Positions 2,366 to 64,000 of a DNA stretch of 64,000 bases are shown in pieces. The first letter of the stretch is position 1, and each line of letters begins with the position of its first letter. Made by a program: the position numbers and the translations under genes. The notes below the pieces were generated by a model. The model was not told where the DNA came from. It made no database searches and saw only the letters and a program-made list of their open reading frames with translations. This DNA comes from Dictyostelium discoideum (lineage: Eukaryota), in contig CM000150.2 of the NCBI GenBank assembly GCA_000004695.1, positions 1,952,001 to 2,016,000 of the forward strand, read 5' to 3'.

Positions 2366-3700
2366 TTATAGTTTTATTTGGGGTAGATTTTTATCTACCT
2401 TTTGAAGTTTCTGGTTTATTTTGTCTTCTAACTGATCTTTACTTTGTTCGTTGTGTTGTTGGTCTTGTGTGTTTGTGGGGTTTTTTGATTTACTGATTTG
2501 TTTTAGAATTTCCTTGTTGAAGTTGTCTATATCTTCATCCATTTTTGTTTTTATGCTTTTTTGTCCATATTCACCCAATTTTGGTTTGACTGGTGTTTTG
2601 TTGGTCCTGTTTGTTTTGTCTTGTTGTTTGTTTTTTGGTGTGTTTAACAATTTACTTGGTGAATCGATAATTTTCGATGGTGTACCATAGGTTGGGCTGA
2701 AACTCATGATATGTTTTATTGGAGAGGAGAAGAACCATTGATTTGAAGGGATTGAAAGTGGGAATTCTATTTTTCTTATTGCATCAGTGTTTGGGCTGGT
2801 GAAGTCGAAGATATCATTTACCTCTCTAAGTTTTTCTTCCGTTGTTAGTCTCTTTGTTTCGCCGTGTTGTTTTATTGGTGTATTGTATGGAGATGGTGGT
2901 TCAATAGGTTTTTCTGATTTTGTTTTAATTTCTTGATTGTTTATCGATTGGGTATTGATCTCATTCTCTATTCTTGTTAGTTCATCTACGTTTTCTAGTG
3001 ATGCATCTATTACCTTTTGAGCTGTATCATCTAGGGCCATAAATGTTTTATCATTAGATGAGGAGGTGATTGGTGGGATAATGATTGTTCTTTTTCCTTG
3101 TTTTGGTATTTGTTCTGATGTAGATTGTGGTTGTTGTTCATCTGATTGTTTTTTATTTTTGTTTTCTTCTTGATTTTCTGGTAATGAGGTTTGATCTCTC
3201 CATCCTTTGTTGGAGTGACCAATTAATGTTAGATTGTCTAGTTCAATGATAGTATCATATTCTTCTACGACTCTTTTCACTGTTTTGATAATTAGAGTTT
3301 CGCCTTTAATTTCAGATTTAATTAGTTTACATCCTTCATTTTCTATTACCCATTCTATTTCTGTGAGTGATTTATACCAATCGAAATCCGTATACATATT
3401 TTTTGGTCTTAGAGTGGTTATAAATTGTCCTTTTAATTCTGCATCGAACATATTTACAAAATAGATTACTGTACTAATACTGTCTGTGAGAATTTTGAAT
3501 GTATTATTACTTTTGATTAAAACATCTTTTTTGTCCAAACTTTTTTCTAAATCTTTTTTTATTTTATCGTCTGGTTCGTGATTGATGTTTATGACGTATT
3601 TGAATTGTTTTTTTTTTAATTGAGTTTTATCCACAATTTCGCTTATTTTTTGTAGGCATTTGTGTTGCTTAATATTTGTGGTGTTGTTTGTGATTTTCAT
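2366..3700 (-). CDS. TRE5-A-like ORF1 protein (444 aa).
   Basis: The ORF track lists a complete 444-aa ORF. Fragments of the same N-terminal sequence recur at 45090-45135 and 50000-50160. Confidence 0.75.
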   Translation of the reverse strand: MKITNNTTNIKQHKCLQKISEIVDKTQLKKKQFKYVININHEPDDKIKKDLEKSLDKKDVLIKSNNTFKILTDSISTVIYFVNMFDAELKGQFITTLRPKNMYTDFDWYKSLTEIEWVIENEGCKLIKSEIKGETLIIKTVKRVVEEYDTIIELDNLTLIGHSNKGWRDQTSLPENQEENKNKKQSDEQQPQSTSEQIPKQGKRTIIIPPITSSSNDKTFMALDDTAQKVIDASLENVDELTRIENEINTQSINNQEIKTKSEKPIEPPSPYNTPIKQHGETKRLTTEEKLREVNDIFDFTSPNTDAIRKIEFPLSIPSNQWFFSSPIKHIMSFSPTYGTPSKIIDSPSKLLNTPKNKQQDKTNRTNKTPVKPKLGEYGQKSIKTKMDEDIDNFNKEILKQISKSKNPTNTQDQQHNEQSKDQLEDKINQKLQKVDKNLPQIKL

Positions 3701-16096: not shown

Positions 16097-17307
16097 ATTT
16101 CCAAAGCCAACAACTCCAAATTAAGCAAGAGCATATACCTCCTGATGAAAATGATAAACAAAAACAACAACAACCACAACAACCACAACCACATGTAAAA
16201 GTAGAAAAATCCAAATCAAGTAAATCAAATAAGAAAAATAAAACACCAACATCATCTCCAAAACCAAAGAAAACAAAAACAAAAGCAAAAGCAAATCCAA
16301 AATCATCAAAGAAAACCACCACAACAGAAAATCAAACACCAGTCAATACATCACCAACTTCAAATACGACAACTCCTTCATCAACTCCATCTTTATTAAC
16401 AACCCCAACAACTCCAAATATACCATTACCATTTCCACAAATATTACAACAACAACAACAAATACAACAAATACAACAATTACAACAAAAACCATTAATA
16501 CCTTTACCAAATAGTAATAATGCAAATTCTTCTTCTTCTTCTTCTTCATCTTCATCCCCTTCTTCTTCATCTTCTTCATCCTCTTCTTCAAAGAAATCAA
16601 AATCTAGAGATTCAATTATAAAATCAATTGTTCAAAGGGAATTAACTATTGATTTAATAAAATGTAAGCATATAAGGAAAGTGGATGAATCAATTATAAA
16701 TAGTTTTTCAAAAGATTATCTTAAAATATTATTAGATGGTGATAGAACTCCACAAAAAAGTAATCCAAAGGATCAATATAAGCACCATATTGAAGAAATC
16801 ATTCAACAATCTGGAGTTACTATTAATAATAATACTTTGGAATATCATTGTATATTTTGTAATATTAATAATAATAATATTAATAATAATAATATTAATA
16901 ACAACAATACTAATAATGAAAACGATAACTCTACTACTACCACTACTACTACCACTACTACTTCCAGTACCAATAATGATGATATTGAAGATAATGATAA
17001 TGATAATGATAATGATAATGAAAATGAAAATGATAATGATAATGATAATGATAATTATAATGATAACGATAATGATGATAACACCGCTGATGAATATGAA
17101 GATATTGAACATTCTGATATCAGTTCTAAACCTAAAAATATCGATTCAACTACCACTAAAACAACAACTACAACAACAACAACTACAACTACCAGTGCCA
17201 CCAATGACGCATCTCAAAACATTGTTGACAATAATAGTGGTAGTAATAGTAGTGGCAATAATAAAAATGAAGATCCAACTACAAAAGTAAATAAAAATGA
17301 AAATGAA

Positions 17308-51313: not shown

Positions 51314-52460
51314 ATGAGAAGATTGACATCTGCTTTCTATGATCCTCCAGCTTACCCCCATCCTCATACTGGATATCCCATGGGTTTGTTTGCCGGCAAG
51401 AGATAAAGATCAAATTTGTCAAGCACCCGGTATTTATATTTATTTCTCAAATACTCCACGACCTTATCCACCACGATTGGTTTCTCACCCAGTTACACAA
51501 CCTGTTTATTCGATTGGAAAATCAATTAATGATATTAGAAGTAGGGTTAAGGTCCATAGTGAAGATGATTTCCCCCATTTGATTAACACCCTAATGGTTT
51601 GCTAATGAGGTTCCCATGTAATAATGAACGTTCTGATAGTAGACCAAGTTTTTCTGAAGTAGCGTTATTAACAATGTTTGCAACCATTAAAAACTACATT
51701 TTAGGTGTCAAAGATAGTGATATTATAGTTTTTGATGACAATGGAGAACCATTTGATATTTTAAGAACGTTTTATGGAGTTAATAATAATAATCCATTTC
51801 GTACTTCTATTCCTCTCATCCAAGCTAATGGAACTGCTAAATTTGGATTCGATCATATGGTTGATTCCACACTTTAACCATTAGCTCCTCCTTCCATAGA
51901 TGTTATCAATGACACTAAATCAATTTTCCCAATAGGTATTCTATATGAATGTGGAAAACTACTTGATGGAGATTATAGTAATTTTGGTCAAGAAGAATCT
52001 GCCAATGGGGTATGTAACCCATGCAATAGAAAAAAAGAAAGTGAAGAGAAAAAATCAAATCCAATCAAATTCAAAAATCCACCATTATCTTACCGTTTAG
52101 AAATTAGCAATAAGTTTAGTAATTTGGAATATCAAAATGCCAAAGAAAATGGTCTTCTAGGAAAAAGTCTAGTTGAAACAGAAAAGCCATCAAAGCCATC
52201 AAAAGTTGGTCTTTTCACTAGGTTTGGCCGTTGGTAAAGGTCTTTTTGTTCCAGAGAAAAAAAGTAATTCGCTTCCTGGCAAATTCAAAGATAGTAATAT
52301 TGAAATGGTAGAGGTAAATCCTGGAGAGGAACAAATAAGTGAAGCGGCGGGCGTTGAGCATAGTCAAATTAGATATAGAGGCACAAATTACTTTTTTGAA
52401 CTTGGAGAAGCTGCTGAAGAGGCTGCTATGATTATCATATCATATCTTTTTTAATTTCTT
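51314..52460 (+). pseudogene. Paralog of the secreted-protein gene at 63222, broken by frameshifts into three ORFs (51339.., 51599.., 52173..).
   Basis: The sequence TGYP(M/W)..C.AR.KDQICQAPGIYIYFSNTP matches TGYPWVCTRYLDDTKEVVQKECKHPGIYLIFVNSP at 63222. Three different frames are needed. Confidence 0.4.
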
Positions 52461-53125
52461 GCACCTCTTTTACGTGCAAAGTTACCAGGTTTGGGTATAT
52501 ATCATTGAGTTTCTTGTGCAGTTGCATAAGTTCTAATTGGCTCTTGTCTTTCTCTGTTTCTTTGCAATCGTCTTCTTTCACTTTCTTCTTGCATCAACCT
52601 TCTTCTTTCTTCTTGTCCGGCCAATCTTTGTTGTGTTTTTTTAATTTTTTTTAATTTTACCTTTTCAAGATCTGCTTCAATTTCTTTTTTTTGACGGGCA
52701 CCCATCGTTTTTTTTTAAAAAATAAACCTAATGATTTATACTTGGTTATATTTAATAGTTGAGAATTTTTATTTTATGACATTGGTTTTGAATTATTTTT
52801 AAAAAAATCATTTTAAATTTTCTTTGATTCATTACATTTTTATTTCTATCTAATGATTTTATATTAATGATCAATAGAAAATCCAATAGCCACATAGGAA
52901 TTCTATAGAAAATCACTGGGAAATTTTGGTTTGATTACCTTTATAATGGTTATTTTCTAAAGATTTTCTATAGAAAACCATTGGGTAAACAGTTGTTTCT
53001 ATAGGAAATCTTTAGAAAACAATCATTGGAAATCGTTGAATTTTTCCTTTTCTCAATTTTTTAATAGTTTTCTAATGGGTCACATCTATACCGTTATCTA
53101 TTGAAAACCATTCCAACAAAAAAAT
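52445..53125. repeat. Left arm of a ~650-bp inverted repeat. The partner is 56440-57057, ~95% identical. The left arm has an extra ~75-bp internal tandem duplication (TTCTATAGAAAA-CCATTGGG units).
   Basis: A reverse-complement comparison was done by eye. Both arms contain the small basic-protein gene. Confidence 0.8.
52502..52705 (-). CDS. Small basic coiled-coil protein (67 aa) encoded in the left IR arm.
   Basis: It reads MGARQKKEIEADLEKVKLKKIKKTQQRLAGQEERRRLMQEESERRRLQRNRERQEPIRTYATAQETQ. A near-identical paralog sits inverted at 56794. Confidence 0.5.
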   Translation of the reverse strand: MGARQKKEIEADLEKVKLKKIKKTQQRLAGQEERRRLMQEESERRRLQRNRERQEPIRTYATAQETQ

Positions 53126-56439: not shown

Positions 56440-57057
56440 ATTAGATATTGTTATTTCCAATGGTTTTAGATTGATAACGGTATAGATGTGACCATTACAT
56501 AGAAAACTATTAAAAATTGAGCCAAAGAAAAATCAACGATTTTTAATGGTTGTTCAAAGATTTCCTATAGAAACCATTATTTACCCTATGATTCTCTATA
56601 GAATTCCTAGCTAATGGATTTTCCAATGACCATTAATATAAAATCATTAGAAAGAAACAAAAATGTAACGAATCAAAGAAAATTTAAAATGATTTTTTTA
56701 AAAATAATTCAAAACCAATGTCATAAAATAAAAATTCTCAATTATTAAATATAAACATGTATAAATCATTAGGTTTATTTTTAAAAAAAAACGATGGGTC
56801 CCCGACAAAAAAAAGAAATTGAAGCAGATCCTGAAACGGTCAAATTAATTAAAATTAAAAAAGCACAACAAAGAATGGCTGAACAAGAAGAAAGAAGAAG
56901 GTTGATGCAAGAAGAAAGTGAAAGAAGACGATTGCAAAGAAACAGAGAAAGACAAGAGCCAATTAGAACTTATGCAACTGCACAAGAAGCTCAAAGATAT
57001 ATACCCAAACCTGGTAACTTTGCACGTAAAAGAGGTGCAAGAAATTAAAAAAAGAAA
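56440..57057. repeat. Right arm of the inverted repeat (partner 52445-53125).
   Basis: Landmark matches include ATAACGGTATAGATGTGACC vs GGGTCACATCTATACCGTTAT. The coding segments correspond. Confidence 0.8.
56794..57048 (+). CDS. Small basic coiled-coil protein (84 aa) encoded in the right IR arm.
   Basis: It reads MGPRQKKEIEADPETVKLIKIKKAQQRMAEQEERRRLMQEESERRRLQRNRERQEPIRTYATAQEAQRYIPKPGNFARKRGARN. Confidence 0.5.
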   Translation: MGPRQKKEIEADPETVKLIKIKKAQQRMAEQEERRRLMQEESERRRLQRNRERQEPIRTYATAQEAQRYIPKPGNFARKRGARN

Positions 57058-57230: not shown

Positions 57231-57689
57231 CTATTCATCTTCTTCAGAATCAGGTAGGTTTTTTGCATCAAAATCACATTGTACACCAGGTGGCAATTCA
57301 CATAATCTAACAGGCTTTCCATCTTTAATACCAACTTTCATTGCTTTTATGACCATTCTAGCATATTCATCTTGGGGAGAGATAGGGGGTGGAGTACTGA
57401 AAAATTCTCGATACATCCAAATATCACATCCTCGAGGATTTTTTCCCAAGTTATATTCAAAAATTCTGCTGTCACTGTAATATTTGTTTATAGTCTCAAT
57501 ATAACGTTCGAATGTTATTCTATAAATCTCCTTCATTTTTTCTTTACATTCCTCTGTGCAGTAACCAGGCTGAATCTTTGGAAACTCATCTTGATCTAGT
57601 AATTCATCAAGGTAAAGAGTGAAATCTTCACTTTTTTTAAGCTTTCTTAAAGAAAATTCATCATGTTGGCAACAATATTTACTTGTCAT
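57231..57689 (-). CDS. Small Cys-containing protein (152 aa), the intact member of a local paralog family.
   Basis: The ORF is complete. The conserved skeleton C..HD.FS..KLKK...EFP.I...C..ECK.KMKEIYRITFE.Y is shared with 50300-50830 and with the Tdd-4-split gene. It has an acidic tail. Confidence 0.55.
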   Translation of the reverse strand: MTSKYCCQHDEFSLRKLKKSEDFTLYLDELLDQDEFPKIQPGYCTEECKEKMKEIYRITFERYIETINKYYSDSRIFEYNLGKNPRGCDIWMYREFFSTPPPISPQDEYARMVIKAMKVGIKDGKPVRLCELPPGVQCDFDAKNLPDSEEDE

Positions 57690-58195: not shown

Positions 58196-58341
58196 TGTTG
58201 TAGGGAATTTTCCATAAAATTTCACTACAGTAGCGTAGTGAATTTTATTATTTAATTTCACTACAGTAGCGTAGTGAAAAAAAAAAATCACTGACCTTAA
58301 ATTTTTTTTTTTTTCAAAAAACAAATAAAGTTTATTAAATT
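58196..58341. repeat. Left TIR of the Tdd-4-like element.
   Basis: It is the reverse complement of 62654-62799, with 4 small differences over 146 bp. Confidence 0.85.
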
Positions 58342-58398
58342 GAAATTTTATTTTTTGTTTTAATTATTATTTTATTTATTTTTATTATAATTATTGTT

Positions 58399-58438
<40 letters not shown>

Positions 58439-58879
58439 CAATTTTTTTTTTTTAAATTTTTTTCAATTTTTATTTGTTTATTAAATTGTAATTTTATTTT
58501 TTGTTTTAATTATTATTTTATTTATTATTATTGTTAATTTTTTTTTTTTTTCAATTTTTTTTTTTTTAATTTATTTTTATTAATTTATTTTTATTAACTC
58601 CCTGAGTTGTTCAATTGCTTGATTTACCATATCACTGTAAACACTGCACACAATTGAATTTTTTCTAGCTTTGTTACCTCTGGTGCATTTGATGTTTTTG
58701 CATTTTCACAGCGAAGAAAAAACCACCTTTAAATTCGCTTTAAATTAAATTTAAATTTGCTTTAAAGTCCTGAATTAAAGCAATTTTAAAGGTAATTTTA
58801 AAGGTAATTTATAAGGTTACTTTAAAATCACCTTAAAAATTACCTTTAAAATTACCTTTAAAATTACCTTTTTAATGGC

Positions 58880-59035
58880 TTTAAAAGCGAGGTCCTGAGT
58901 TCGAAGCCGTTATTTAACGGATAAATTTTTTAAAATTTTTTTTTTAATTTTTCAAAAATTACCAAAAGGGATTCGATCCCCCGACCCTCTATCAAAGGGT
59001 AGTCTCATCAACCATTACACCATTTGATTGCTTTG
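58880..59035. other. tRNA-like remnants (T-arm/B-box-like GAGTTCGAAGCC and GGATTCGATCCC; a Gln/Ile-like D/anticodon segment on the minus strand) inside the Tdd-4-like element, flanked by 12-bp tandem repeats (ACCTTTAAAATT)n.
   Basis: Partial cloverleaf elements but no complete acceptor stem. The flanks 58740-58870 and 59120-59420 are degenerate direct repeats. Confidence 0.3.
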
Positions 59036-59974
59036 ATGAAAAATTTAAAAATGATAGAATATTTTATCCCCATTTTTTTTTTCTAAAATTAGATCTTTTT
59101 TATTAAAAACCTTAAATTTATGTTTAAAGGAAATTTAAATTCACTTTAAATCTACTTTAAATATACTTTAAATCCTATTTAAAATTAATTTAAAATAAAT
59201 TTTAAAGGTATTTTTAAATATCTTAAAAATTATCTTAAAAATTACCTTAAAAATTACCTTTAAAATCACCTTTAAAATCACCTTTAAAATTGCTTAAAAA
59301 TTTATTTTAAAGCAAATTTTAAAGGCATTTTTAAATATCTTAAAAATTACCTTAAAAATTACCTTAAAAATGAATTTTTTAAACGCGGCTTTAAATTCAA
59401 TTTAAATCCAATTTAAATCAACTTTTCTTTAAATTTGCTTTAAAGGTGCATTTTTCTTTGCTGTGTTCCTTTGTATACAAAAAAGTCCAAATATAATTCG
59501 TTTTCTATTACAGTTTTTACACAATGTTGGTGAAATTGTTTTGATTTTAATTCTAATGCTTCTAACATCATATTTGGATTTTTAACGATTAAAGCATCAC
59601 CACTATTTACATATAGTACTTTGGCTGCTTTTTCGAGGAATTTAGTCAAATTTTCCTCTGAATCTAACTATTCTTCATTGCCATATTCAATGGCTAAATT
59701 TCTTAAGAGTTTTATCGAATCTATTAATTCTTCGATCATTCTTTTTTTTTGAAATTTTTTTTTATTTTGTTTTTTCAATTTTTTTTTTTTATTTTGTTTT
59801 TTCAATTTTTTTTAAGTTTTATTTTTTTTTATTTTTTTTTATTTTTTTTAACAAATGTAATTTTTTTTTATTTTTTTCAATTTTTTTTTTTTTTAATTTT
59901 TAATTTTTTTTTTTTTTTTTAATTTTTTGTGTTGATTTGTGTTTTTTTTGTTTTTTTGATTTGGCCACTTGTTT

Positions 59975-60961
59975 TTATTTTCTAATTTCCCCATACCCCC
60001 TTCTATTAATTGCAACCAAATCAAGTTCTAATTTTTGTGTCCTTGTTAACTTTGTTTTTGCAACTTTTTTTGAAGGTATCACATTAACGATTTTTCCTAT
60101 TGATGGTGATTTGGAAGGTGATTTAAATGGTGATTTAAAAGGTGAATTGGAAGGTGATTTAAATGGTGAATTGGAAGGTGAAATGGATGGTGATTTGGAA
60201 GGTGATTTAAATGGTGATTTGGAAGGTGATTTAAATGGTGATTTAAATGGTGAATTGGAAGGTGAAATGGATGGTGATTTGAGAGGTGATTTGGATGGTT
60301 TAGAATGTGATTTTAAAGGAGGTTTATTAACAATTGGTATCTTATGAGGACGGCCTCTGAGACGTTTAACAGTTGTTACTATACCACTACCAGATTGTGG
60401 TATAGTATACGATGGTATTATTTGCACTTGAGGTATTGGTGGTACTATTTCTTTTAAATTCATATCCTTTCTCAAACAATTCATTAAATTTGGCGCTGTT
60501 GGATTATTATTTAAAAATGGGAGTATTTCTTCTTGTTCCATTTCATTATTGAGTTTGTGTTGAAATGGATTATCGTTAATGATAGGTGGAATATTTGATG
60601 GATTGTTAAGAGCATCTTCCAAAACCCTAAATGGATCATTTTGTGTTACCAATTGATGCAAGTTGAAATTGGATAAATCCTTACCAAGATTTTTAATAAA
60701 CTGAACCAGAAATTCAATAACTTTCCCATCATTATTTAAATAAAGACCAGAAGTAAAAGAATCAATATCTTTTTGTATGTTTGGCGATGTTCTAAAAATA
60801 TCAACTGTTGATTGTTTATAAAGAACCAACTTGTTACCTCCTACAAAACCAGAGTATAAACCTTTTTTTTGAAGGCTATTGATTCCATCTTCCAAAAATT
60901 CAAGTTTATAAAGTTGTTTAGTGTCTTCCTGTATTACCTTATGAATTTTACACAAAATCAA
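59975..60961 (-). CDS. Transposon-internal ORF (328 aa) with an AT-hook (RLRGRPHK) and 14 tandem SPxK/SPFK repeats, likely DNA-binding.
   Basis: The ORF is complete. The tail reads KSPLKSPSISPSNSPFKSPFKSPSKSP..., which is histone-H1-like SPKK. Confidence 0.5.
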   Translation of the reverse strand: MILCKIHKVIQEDTKQLYKLEFLEDGINSLQKKGLYSGFVGGNKLVLYKQSTVDIFRTSPNIQKDIDSFTSGLYLNNDGKVIEFLVQFIKNLGKDLSNFNLHQLVTQNDPFRVLEDALNNPSNIPPIINDNPFQHKLNNEMEQEEILPFLNNNPTAPNLMNCLRKDMNLKEIVPPIPQVQIIPSYTIPQSGSGIVTTVKRLRGRPHKIPIVNKPPLKSHSKPSKSPLKSPSISPSNSPFKSPFKSPSKSPFKSPSKSPSISPSNSPFKSPSNSPFKSPFKSPSKSPSIGKIVNVIPSKKVAKTKLTRTQKLELDLVAINRRGYGEIRK

Positions 60962-61031
60962 TATTTTCTATTAGAATTAAATATAAAATTTGTTAATTAT
61001 TACTGTTTCATATATTATTAATCTTTATGTT

Positions 61032-62268
61032 TTAATTACTTACATTATTTTTTTTAATTTCTAGAAAGAGTACAGTATCACCAACTTTCAATCCCTTTGG
61101 TGGTTTTGAATTCCATTGATTTTGGTAACTTGTGAGATTTTCAAGAATAATAGCTGTTCTTTCTTCTTTTGAAACATCTGAAACACCAATTGATTGAGAG
61201 TCTTGTTCTGATTGAACATTAATAAACAAAGGAACAATACCAACAGCTTGAGATGGTGTCATTTTAATTGTTCTTGTTTTTGTATTATTGTAATCATACA
61301 AAGCTTGTTTTAATAGTTCAGAAAGAGACCTAGAAGTACCATCAAGAAAACTAAAATTTATTTATAAATGATTAATTAATAAACATATCGATAATTTATA
61401 TTGTTCACAATATCATACTCTTGTTGTTTTAATTTTGAGATCCTCTCCTTGATAGTTCGATTCAATCTTTCTACCATACCTTGAGTTGTTGGTGTACGAG
61501 GAGCTCCATGTGCTGACTTGGAGCCTGGAAAAAGTTTTAGGAATTCTTTTTGGACTTTGTTTTTAAATTCACGTCCATTATCGCAGTGCCATACTTTCAC
61601 AGGTTTGCCAAAGTACGTGAGAGCCAAAAAATTGTATATGGGAACTGTTCTCTTTGTTGTCAAACATCTAAAAAATAAATGATAATTAAAATAAAAAAAG
61701 AAAACTAATAAATTAATAAATAAAAAATAAATACCTTCCAGTAGCAAATTTTGTAAAAGAATCTATGCATAGAATAATGTAAACAACATCGGTGTCGTAC
61801 GGTTGTACAGAGTCATATTGGATAAGATCATCTAGTTTAGTTAGTATCTTTTCATTATCATCATCGTATGTAACTTTTTCTTTATGTTCACCTTTAATTG
61901 ATGTTAAATCATAAACCAATCTTGAGTATTCCTCGGTATCTACAATTGGAGCAAAATCCTTTGTTATACCTATTAATTTATTTAAATTATTAAAAGAGTT
62001 TTAATATAAAAGTTACAAAACATCATATAAAAATGATTGATACCAAACCTTTTATTCTATTTCGTTGGCAAATGTCACACGTATCTACTGCATCAGATAC
62101 AAAAGAATACAATCCCATATTATAATATTTAGTCTTGTAGTTCCCATAGGTTGCATCTCTTCCTATATGACCTTTATGCATTTCTTCCCAGAGTGATACC
62201 ATTCTATAATCATTAATTACTTCTAAACACACTTCTTTTGATATATTTCTATCTCCGCCACAATTCAT
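61032..62268 (-). CDS. Retroviral-type (c-)integrase gene of the transposon. Exons in order: HHCC zinc finger (62023..62268), DDE core part 1 (61713..61919), DDE core part 2 (61376..61747), C-terminal GDTVLF domain (61032..61301). Intron boundaries are not resolved.
   Basis: The zinc finger is H-x2-H ... C-x2-C (HKGHIGRDATYG...CDICQRNR). The catalytic D's are DTDVVYIILCID and HCDNGREF. The catalytic E is PRTPTTQGMVERLNRTIKE. Confidence 0.7.
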
Positions 62269-62487
62269 GACTTTTTTTTCAATTCTAAATAATTTTTCTT
62301 TTCTGTTTCTGTTTTTTATTGGTCAGAATTTAAAAAATGATTGTGTTATTGTAAGGAAAAATATTTACTCATCATGTAAAAATTTATAATTTTTATGTTT
62401 AGTATTTTCAAAATTATTATCTTCAATAAATTTTAAATAATTTATAATTTCATTTATTTTATCTTGTTTCATTTTGGGAAAATGAAA

Positions 62488-62522
<35 letters not shown>

Positions 62523-62653
62523 TGTTGGGGAAAAAAAAAAAAAGTTTTGGCGCAAAAAAAAAAAAAAAAATAAAATAAAAAAAAAAAAAAATAAAATAAA
62601 AAAAAAAAAAAATAAAAAAACTTATATAGAACTAATAATCAAATAAAAGATAA

Positions 62654-62799
62654 TAATTTAATAAACTTTATTTGTTTTTTGAAAAAAAAAAAATTTAGGG
62701 TCAGTGATTTTTTTTTTTCACTACGCTACTGTAGTGAAATTAAATAATAAAATTCACTACGCTACTGTAGTGAAATTTTATTGAAAATTCCCTACAACA
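62654..62799. repeat. Right TIR of the Tdd-4-like element.
   Basis: As above. Confidence 0.85.
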
Positions 62800-63221: not shown

Positions 63222-63446
63222 ATGTTTAACAGACTGTTATATCTATATTTTTTATTAGCTTTATATTTTAACCATATCCATTGCCTGGAAAAATATGCGT
63301 CGAAATTTTACAGACCACCAACAGCAGTACACAGACAAACTGGTTACCCATGGGTTTGTACAAGATATTTGGATGATACTAAAGAAGTGGTACAAAAAGA
63401 ATGCAAACACCCGGGTATATATTTAATTTTTGTAAATTCACCATAG
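63222..63446 (+). CDS. Secreted small protein (signal peptide MFNRLLYLYFLLALYFNHIHC) whose 3' region is interrupted at ~63473 by a second TIR element.
   Basis: The ORF is complete. It is a paralog of the frameshifted 51314-52460 gene. Confidence 0.45.
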   Translation: MFNRLLYLYFLLALYFNHIHCLEKYASKFYRPPTAVHRQTGYPWVCTRYLDDTKEVVQKECKHPGIYLIFVNSP

Positions 63447-63472
63447 TCTACCTCTTTGGTTAATTTGTTCCA

Positions 63473-63696
63473 TACACCTATGTTGTAGGGAATTTTTTTT
63501 GAAATTTCGCTTTCTAAACGGCAGTGAATTTTTACACTAAAATACACTGTTTATGCATGGTGTAAAAATTCACTAAATTTTTTTTTTTTTATAATTAAAT
63601 TAAAAAACAATTTATTTAATCAGAAAAATAAAAAACCAATTTTATTCAGTTATTTGCTTGTTATTTATTTTTTTATAACAAAAAAATTTAGTTTGC

Positions 63697-63754
<58 letters not shown>

Positions 63755-63837
63755 CAATTATTTTTTTCAATTTTTTTTTTTATCGATTGTTTCATTTTTG
63801 GGGAATAAAATAAAATTGTTCGATAAAAAAAAAATTG

Positions 63838-63900
<63 letters not shown>

Positions 63901-64000
63901 GGTTTATATTTTAATTATGGTATTCATTATTGTTTATATAATTATTTTTAGTATTTATATTATTTATAATTATAAACTCGAGTTAATAGAATTATTATTA
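63473..64000. mobile_element. Terminus of a second DNA-transposon-like element. It shares the 16-bp Tdd-4 terminus TGTTGTAGGGAATTTT, then diverges: a 14-bp-stem hairpin GTGAATTTTTACAC...GTGTAAAAATTCAC, then long poly-T/poly-A. It runs off the window.
   Basis: The shared terminal 16-mer and the subterminal palindrome are seen directly. The other end is outside the window. Confidence 0.45.

Follow-up and report, generated by a model that had tools for sequence, protein, structure and literature searches.

A 1614-bp non-autonomous transposon, very probably a member of the Tdd-5 family, has its left end at position 63481 of the DNA analysed here and is inserted in a kinase-like pseudogene of the minus strand. 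The window, i.e. the whole stretch of 64,000 nucleotides that was analysed, has an A+T content of 76% and carries Dictyostelium discoideum genes and transposons. The features that bear on this reading are collected in Table 1.

Table 1. Features at and around the insertion site (coordinates of the window)
Feature	Position	Strand	Description
Tdd-4 copy	58196..62799	-	~145-nt near-perfect inverted ends; target duplication GTCAT (exactly 5 bp)
Secreted-protein fragment	63222..63446	+	74-codon N-terminal piece; family homologs 113-595 aa
Kinase-like gene remnant	63447..63480	-	codons ...CMEQINQRGR, downstream of insertion
Left target-site duplication CACCTA	63475..63480	.	recurs after right terminus, L001rc 17092-17097
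16-nt terminus TGTTGTAGGGAATTTT	63481..63496	+	identical to both Tdd-4 termini; first bases fit TGTNR, as in Ginger2/Tdd
Left terminal inverted repeat, Tdd-5-type element	63481..63633	+	153 nt, 87% complementary, gap-free, to L001 3369-3521
Subterminal palindrome	63523..63574	+	15-bp perfect stem, 22-nt loop, inverted AGTGAA / TTCACT motifs
Start of AT-rich core	63634..64000	+	~190-nt palindrome, T-run and A-run near 63800

Results

Occurrences of the 16-nt terminus

When up to two mismatches were allowed, TGTTGTAGGGAATTTT was found three times in the window, at 58196 (plus strand), 62784 (minus strand) and 63481 (plus strand). The matches at 58196 and 62784 form the tips of a Tdd-4 copy, which is apparently intact, lies 680 bp from the element and contains ORFs that match the TDD4 (XP_629668) transposase core. 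The original prediction had noticed the recurrence correctly but placed it at 63473, a slip of 8 nt. Since the window by itself contains one end only, the 16-mer could in principle recur by chance or represent a lone broken end produced by a rearrangement. Dinucleotide-preserving shuffles gave a chance expectation of 0.31 matches in the window, and three matches were reached in 0 of 100 shuffles, which argues against coincidence. In addition, scanning of seven of the eight related loci (L001 to L007) with the same tolerance located the motif exclusively at termini of Tdd-type inverted repeats. A second end, a flanking duplication and an empty paralogous site are all present as well (see below); the right end in L001, the protein alignment across the reconstructed site and the empty site in L008 refute the chance or broken-end explanation, which we give practically no credence.

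Both ends of the element and its target site

The locus was retrieved from D. discoideum assembly GCA_054883475.1 by an exact protein match to window gene 57231..57689. L001, as the retrieved sequence is called here, shows 99.5-99.7% identity to the window and extends 3.7 kb past its end. Of the element, the window contains the first 520 nt, and ca. 1100 bp more lie beyond; in L001, an inverted terminus is found 1.6 kb downstream, giving an element length of 1614 bp (L001 3369-4982). The element has TGTTG ... CAACA tips at both ends, in agreement with the TGTNR ... YNACA pattern, and 110 of 112 tip nucleotides of its inverted ends are identical. Compared with the Tdd-5 repeat of ~280-297 nt, the right end is shortened to ~155 nt. 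The CACCTA duplication is 6 nt long and can be read as a 5-bp duplication next to one base that matches by chance or as a 6-bp one. In the paralogous locus L008 the target site is uninterrupted: CACCTA is present once (ATAGATAAGTGTATGG), and the sequence reads ...CCACCCATAGATAAGTGTATGG... without a break at the insertion site.

The right end is also present in the AX4 reference, since the coding sequence of gene model DDB_G0268962 (P0052) enters the right terminus with ...PPIDRCV. The splice donor of this model is the GTAGGG of the inverted repeat, and its last exon, of 9 codons, is located within the element. The model (L001 2941-3718) thereby joins a kinase-like ORF to a transposon exon, which may be either exonisation or an annotation artefact. 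Thus, the original prediction that a second inverted-repeat element, distinct from the Tdd-4 copy, starts here is borne out by the pair of inverted ends, the duplication that flanks them and the empty site in the paralogous locus: the search beyond position 64000 that it had proposed recovered the right inverted terminus in both L001 and AX4 and the CACCTA duplication in L001. No match to the 30-nt tip was found in the metagenome contigs scanned, and a search for tRNA genes and Rfam families in or beside the element retrieved none.

A hairpin had been predicted from the subterminal sequence, and it is indeed present; its stem is 15 bp long, however, and not 14 bp as first proposed, with AGTGAATTTTTACAC (63523-63537) pairing perfectly with GTGTAAAAATTCACT (63560-63574). 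The DNA fold of 63481-63600 has an energy of -15.4 kcal/mol (z = -2.7 relative to shuffles). The AGTGAA / TTCACT motifs of the palindrome are likely transposase-binding sites, the assignment of the bases bound being putative.

The interrupted gene

According to the original prediction, the element interrupts the neighbouring secreted-protein gene. This turned out to be wrong: the insertion splits a kinase-like gene of the minus strand, and the 74-aa secreted-protein ORF was cut by a separate deletion of ~817 bp. In L001, a minus-strand ORF of 149 codons (MPPKIKITTGPIGSGKTT..., 2941-3390) extends into the right inverted repeat. With the element and one CACCTA taken out, this ORF continues as ...VIPPIDRCMEQINQRGR, and four full-length paralogs (P0024, P0025, P0028 and P0031; Pfam dNK) span the reconstructed empty site as one alignment, with 77-89% identity over 158-166 aa. 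Two of them, P0024 and P0025, are 83-89% identical and carry Pfam domain PF01712. The reconstructed ORF matches PF01712 below the curated cut-off (E = 0.0015) and contains both GPIGSGKTT, a P-loop of the GxxxxGK(T/S) form, and QINQRGR, which corresponds to the RxxxRxR lid motif. The paralog alignment across the junction, taken together with the uninterrupted DNA of L008, identifies the interrupted gene as deoxynucleoside-kinase-like. Since 12 codons and the 3′ end are missing, it is a pseudogene. A plus-strand ORF continuing across the insertion ('TPIYGW' resembling 'PVYWIGKS') was also considered and was rejected, both because of the minus-strand kinase-like homology just described and because plus-strand homology ends at ~63452.

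In L008, the kinase-like and secreted-protein genes are convergent, tail to tail, and the 817 bp between them are kept. The piece missing from the window corresponds to L008 3493-4309; its junction is at ~63447/63448, 34 nt from the transposon, and as a result of the deletion the shortened 3′ ends of the two genes are joined. The paralog at 51314 was correctly predicted to be damaged, being a frameshifted copy from the same secreted-protein family.

Several other rearrangements were observed nearby. Small paralogous ORFs (MGARQKKEIEAD... / MGPRQKKEIEAD...) lie in an inverted duplication (52447-52932 / 56571-57052, 93% identity), and the region as a whole is pieced together from fragments of duplicated genes. 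A minus-strand gene is divided into two parts (63056-62800 and 58195-57983) by the Tdd-4 copy; its intact paralog, of 152 aa, is at 57231-57689. Nested in the Tdd-4 copy is an insert of ~740-760 bp (58707-59465) with inverted ends CACAGCGAAGAAAAA.CCACCTTTAAA... / ...TTTAAAGGTGCATTTTTCTTTGCTGTG; it is rich in direct and inverted repeats of the TTTAAAGGTAATT type, is 69% similar to L003 988-1316, and yielded no tRNA when its sequence was searched. The insert may be another small mobile element. L001 has this Tdd-4 copy but not the insert, which is thus polymorphic between strains.

The ends match those beside Tdd-5-type transposase genes

Tdd-4 and Tdd-5 are the two Dictyostelium families described as having integrase-like transposases and 5-bp target duplications; both have been placed in the Ginger2/Tdd group, whose tips read TGTNR, and the published length of Tdd-5 is 3783 bp (PMC2836005). 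The transposase cores of TDD4 (XP_629668) and TDD5 (AF298206) were taken from the supplement of that work (Bao et al. 2010; PMC2836005). A search with the Tdd-4 transposase protein retrieved several Tdd-like lineages from Dictyostelium assemblies, among them P0004, P0001 and P0008, which are, respectively, 90%, 82% and 84% identical to the TDD5 transposase core. The comparator loci L004, L006 and L007 are from the sister species D. cf. discoideum and stand in for the nucleotide sequence of AF298206. The end of the element matches the ends found beside Tdd-5-type transposase genes in these three loci, to which it is 78-86% identical over 157-288 nt. In L004, the matching end is located 335 bp upstream of the P0004 gene; in L006, matching ends lie on both sides of a 2780-bp element that contains P0008; in L007, the matching end is upstream of P0001. 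The first 41 nt of the element (TGTTGTAGGGAATTTTTTTTGAAATTTCGCTTTCTAAACGG...) are identical in L004 and L006, as are the first 31 nt in L007. We therefore assign the element to the Tdd-5 family. The idea of a separate family borrowing the Tdd-4 terminus had to be abandoned, since the ends are those seen beside Tdd-5-type transposase genes and Tdd-5 has already been described. No Tdd-5-type transposase was found among the predicted proteins of D. discoideum assemblies.

Loci of other Tdd-like lineages, L002, L003 and L005, were rejected as partners of the element: L002 is without the terminus, L003 ends in TGTTGTAGCGAATTTTTTCACCC and L005 in TGTTGCAGGGAATTTTTATGAAATTTCC. The tips at L003 8193 (minus strand) and L005 7586 (minus strand), TGTTGTAGCGAATTTTTT... 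and TGTTGCAGGGAATTTTTATGAAATTTCC..., are related yet distinct, which indicates that the D. discoideum species group has more Tdd families than the two that bear names. The sequences on either side of the Tdd-5-like element at L006 4993-7772 are inverted relative to each other over ~55 nt, with no direct target duplication; a foldback, aberrant transposition or an assembly artefact could account for this odd arrangement.

The Tdd-4 and Tdd-5-type ends are themselves collinear, with ~66% identity over ~290 nt (a 294-nt BLAST alignment). Both contain AAATTTC(A/G)C, AGTGAATTTT, CACT...GTAGTG...TCACT and a T-run, and subterminal AGTGAA/TTCACT palindromes are found at the corresponding place in Tdd-4 and Tdd-5-like copies. 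The hairpin of the element had been thought to be unrelated to that of Tdd-4; the collinear alignment and the common motifs show that the two are homologous. The scheme implied by the original prediction is that of a non-autonomous element from a different family, which the Tdd-4 transposase would mobilise by way of the common 16-nt terminus. The identity of these 16 nt, the apparently intact Tdd-4 copy close by and the homology of the ends, which might permit cross-recognition, speak for such a scheme. Past nucleotide 16, however, the element follows the Tdd-5-type ends far more closely (78-86%, with 41 nt identical) than Tdd-4 (~66%), and the two TTTCACTACAGTAGCGTAGTGAA units of Tdd-4 are both absent from its end; a Tdd-5-type transposase is the parsimonious partner. 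Cross-mobilisation by Tdd-4 is possible but unsupported, and we consider a different family of this kind improbable.

Tdd-5, thug and DDT were reportedly described by Glockner et al. 2001. A length of 1.6 kb and the lack of a transposase would also suit a short non-coding element such as thug-S, thug-T or DDT-S. However, the ends of the element adjoin Tdd-5-type transposase genes in three independent loci, and thug and DDT are listed apart from Tdd, the three being separate families (PMC5633606), which makes it very unlikely that the element is a thug or DDT-S copy.

Core sequence and missing transposase

The 1614-bp element gave no tblastn match to 12 Tdd transposase sequences and contains no H2C2/DDE (rve) transposase. 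Since similarity to Tdd transposases is absent, the element is non-autonomous, as the original prediction had suspected. Its core (element positions 285-1456, ~1.17 kb) matched neither Tdd-4 nor the Tdd-5-like copies, whether compared as DNA or in translation. The portion of the core that lies in the window is collinear with L001 and 92-99.5% identical to it apart from homopolymer lengths; its palindrome, a self-match of 63703-63895 at 84%, arises from long A and T runs. In the window, the T-run (63701-63755) is ~55 nt and the A-run (~63838-63895) ~58 nt long, compared with ~20 and ~30 nt in L001. This is either homopolymer length variation or an assembly difference.

Two GAGGGTACCCCCC motifs are present in the core, as is a G+C-richer piece that encodes a 46-aa ORF (P0023) and is preceded by the 3′ splice-like sequence ttattcccag. 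The 46-aa product is 100% identical to the AX4 hypothetical protein DDB_G0269070, and four AX4 records, on three contigs, correspond to it. The core is thus multicopy, with probably at least four copies. Among 5.8 billion proteins, no homologs of the 46-aa peptide were found beyond its AX4 copies. No second full 1.6-kb copy was recovered: exact-protein look-ups of the 46-aa ORF, the 74-aa ORF and P0052 gave no recorded gene.

The origin of the core may be sought within the Tdd-5 family itself. The element would then be a plain internal-deletion copy of canonical Tdd-5, and the core would be Tdd-5 sequence missing from the D. cf. discoideum copies; this is a sub-case of the Tdd-5-family assignment, the alternative being a non-autonomous lineage of its own whose core is foreign. 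At 3783 bp, Tdd-5 exceeds the L006 copy (2780 bp) by ~1 kb, so such unseen sequence could exist. Over its left 284 nt the element corresponds to a full-length Tdd-5-like end, transposase-start traces (tttcatttt...ataaaataaa) resemble those of Tdd-4, and the 46-aa ORF is on the strand expected for a transposase, after its 3′ splice-like sequence. Against a simple deletion, the core resembles neither the Tdd transposase genes compared nor their flanks, at the DNA or the translated level, and the 46-aa peptide is an orphan outside AX4. Furthermore, once two 297-bp ends and a transposase gene of ~2.5 kb are subtracted from 3783 bp, little room would be left for 1.17 kb. We therefore regard a plain deletion copy as a tentative option at best.

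We consider it somewhat less likely still that the element founds a new non-autonomous lineage in which Tdd-5 ends enclose a foreign 1.17-kb core with a conserved spliced mini-gene, represented by the 46-aa ORF. As its 16-nt tips are identical to those of Tdd-4, an element of this sort might be mobilised by either Tdd transposase.

Discussion

The preferred reading, a non-autonomous member of the Tdd-5 family, suggests how the element may move. A Tdd-5-type DDE transposase would act in trans to cut and paste it, with the catalytic core acting on the TGT...ACA tips, and staggered cuts in the target would produce the 5-bp (apparent 6-bp) duplication. The 16 nt in common with Tdd-4 would reflect common descent together with a shared active-site requirement, while the diverged subterminal AGTGAA/TTCACT palindromes may provide family specificity.

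The element belongs to the known Tdd-5 family rather than to a new one, and elements of this kind are nothing unusual in this genome. Around it, transposons and gene duplicates in decay are clustered in the typical manner, and the locus exemplifies the known clustering of Tdd elements. Knowledge of the Ginger2/Tdd group is unchanged. The main value of the analysis lies in annotation. The AX4 model DDB_G0268962 is chimeric, part kinase-like pseudogene and part transposon sequence, and 46-aa hypothetical proteins (DDB_G0269070, DDB_G0294605 and others) probably sit within this transposon type. In addition, two sister families with identical 16-nt tips and diverged subterminal motifs provide a starting point for defining the bases recognised by integrase-like Tdd transposases.

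Comparison with known elements places the 1614-bp transposon as follows. With Tdd-4 it has in common the 16-nt terminus and a collinear end architecture of AAATTTC(A/G)C, AGTGAATTTT, a subterminal palindrome and a T-run. Beyond the terminus the two diverge: Tdd-4 has two hairpins with 8-bp stems (TTCACTAC/GTAGTGAA), whereas the element has one palindrome with a 15-bp stem. Tdd-4 is autonomous, in contrast to the element, and its transposase lineage is the sister of Tdd-5, at ~50% identity. With Tdd-5 the element shares the inverted-end sequence (as judged from the D. cf. discoideum comparators), the TGTNR tip and the host species, and it is likewise clustered with another Tdd element; its duplication of 5 or 6 bp compares with 5 bp in Tdd-5. 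It differs from Tdd-5 in being less than half as long, in having no H2C2/DDE transposase and in its 1.17-kb core, which contains the 46-aa orphan ORF and is unmatched in the Tdd copies compared. Outside Dictyostelium, Ginger2-1N1_NV of Nematostella is a non-autonomous Ginger2 derivative of 252 bp with more than 50 copies (PMC2836005, Table 2). Both elements are short and have kept the ends of an autonomous Ginger2 family while the transposase is missing; Ginger2-1N1_NV, however, is MITE-like, whereas the element described here is 1.6 kb long, with a core for which at least four copies are inferred.
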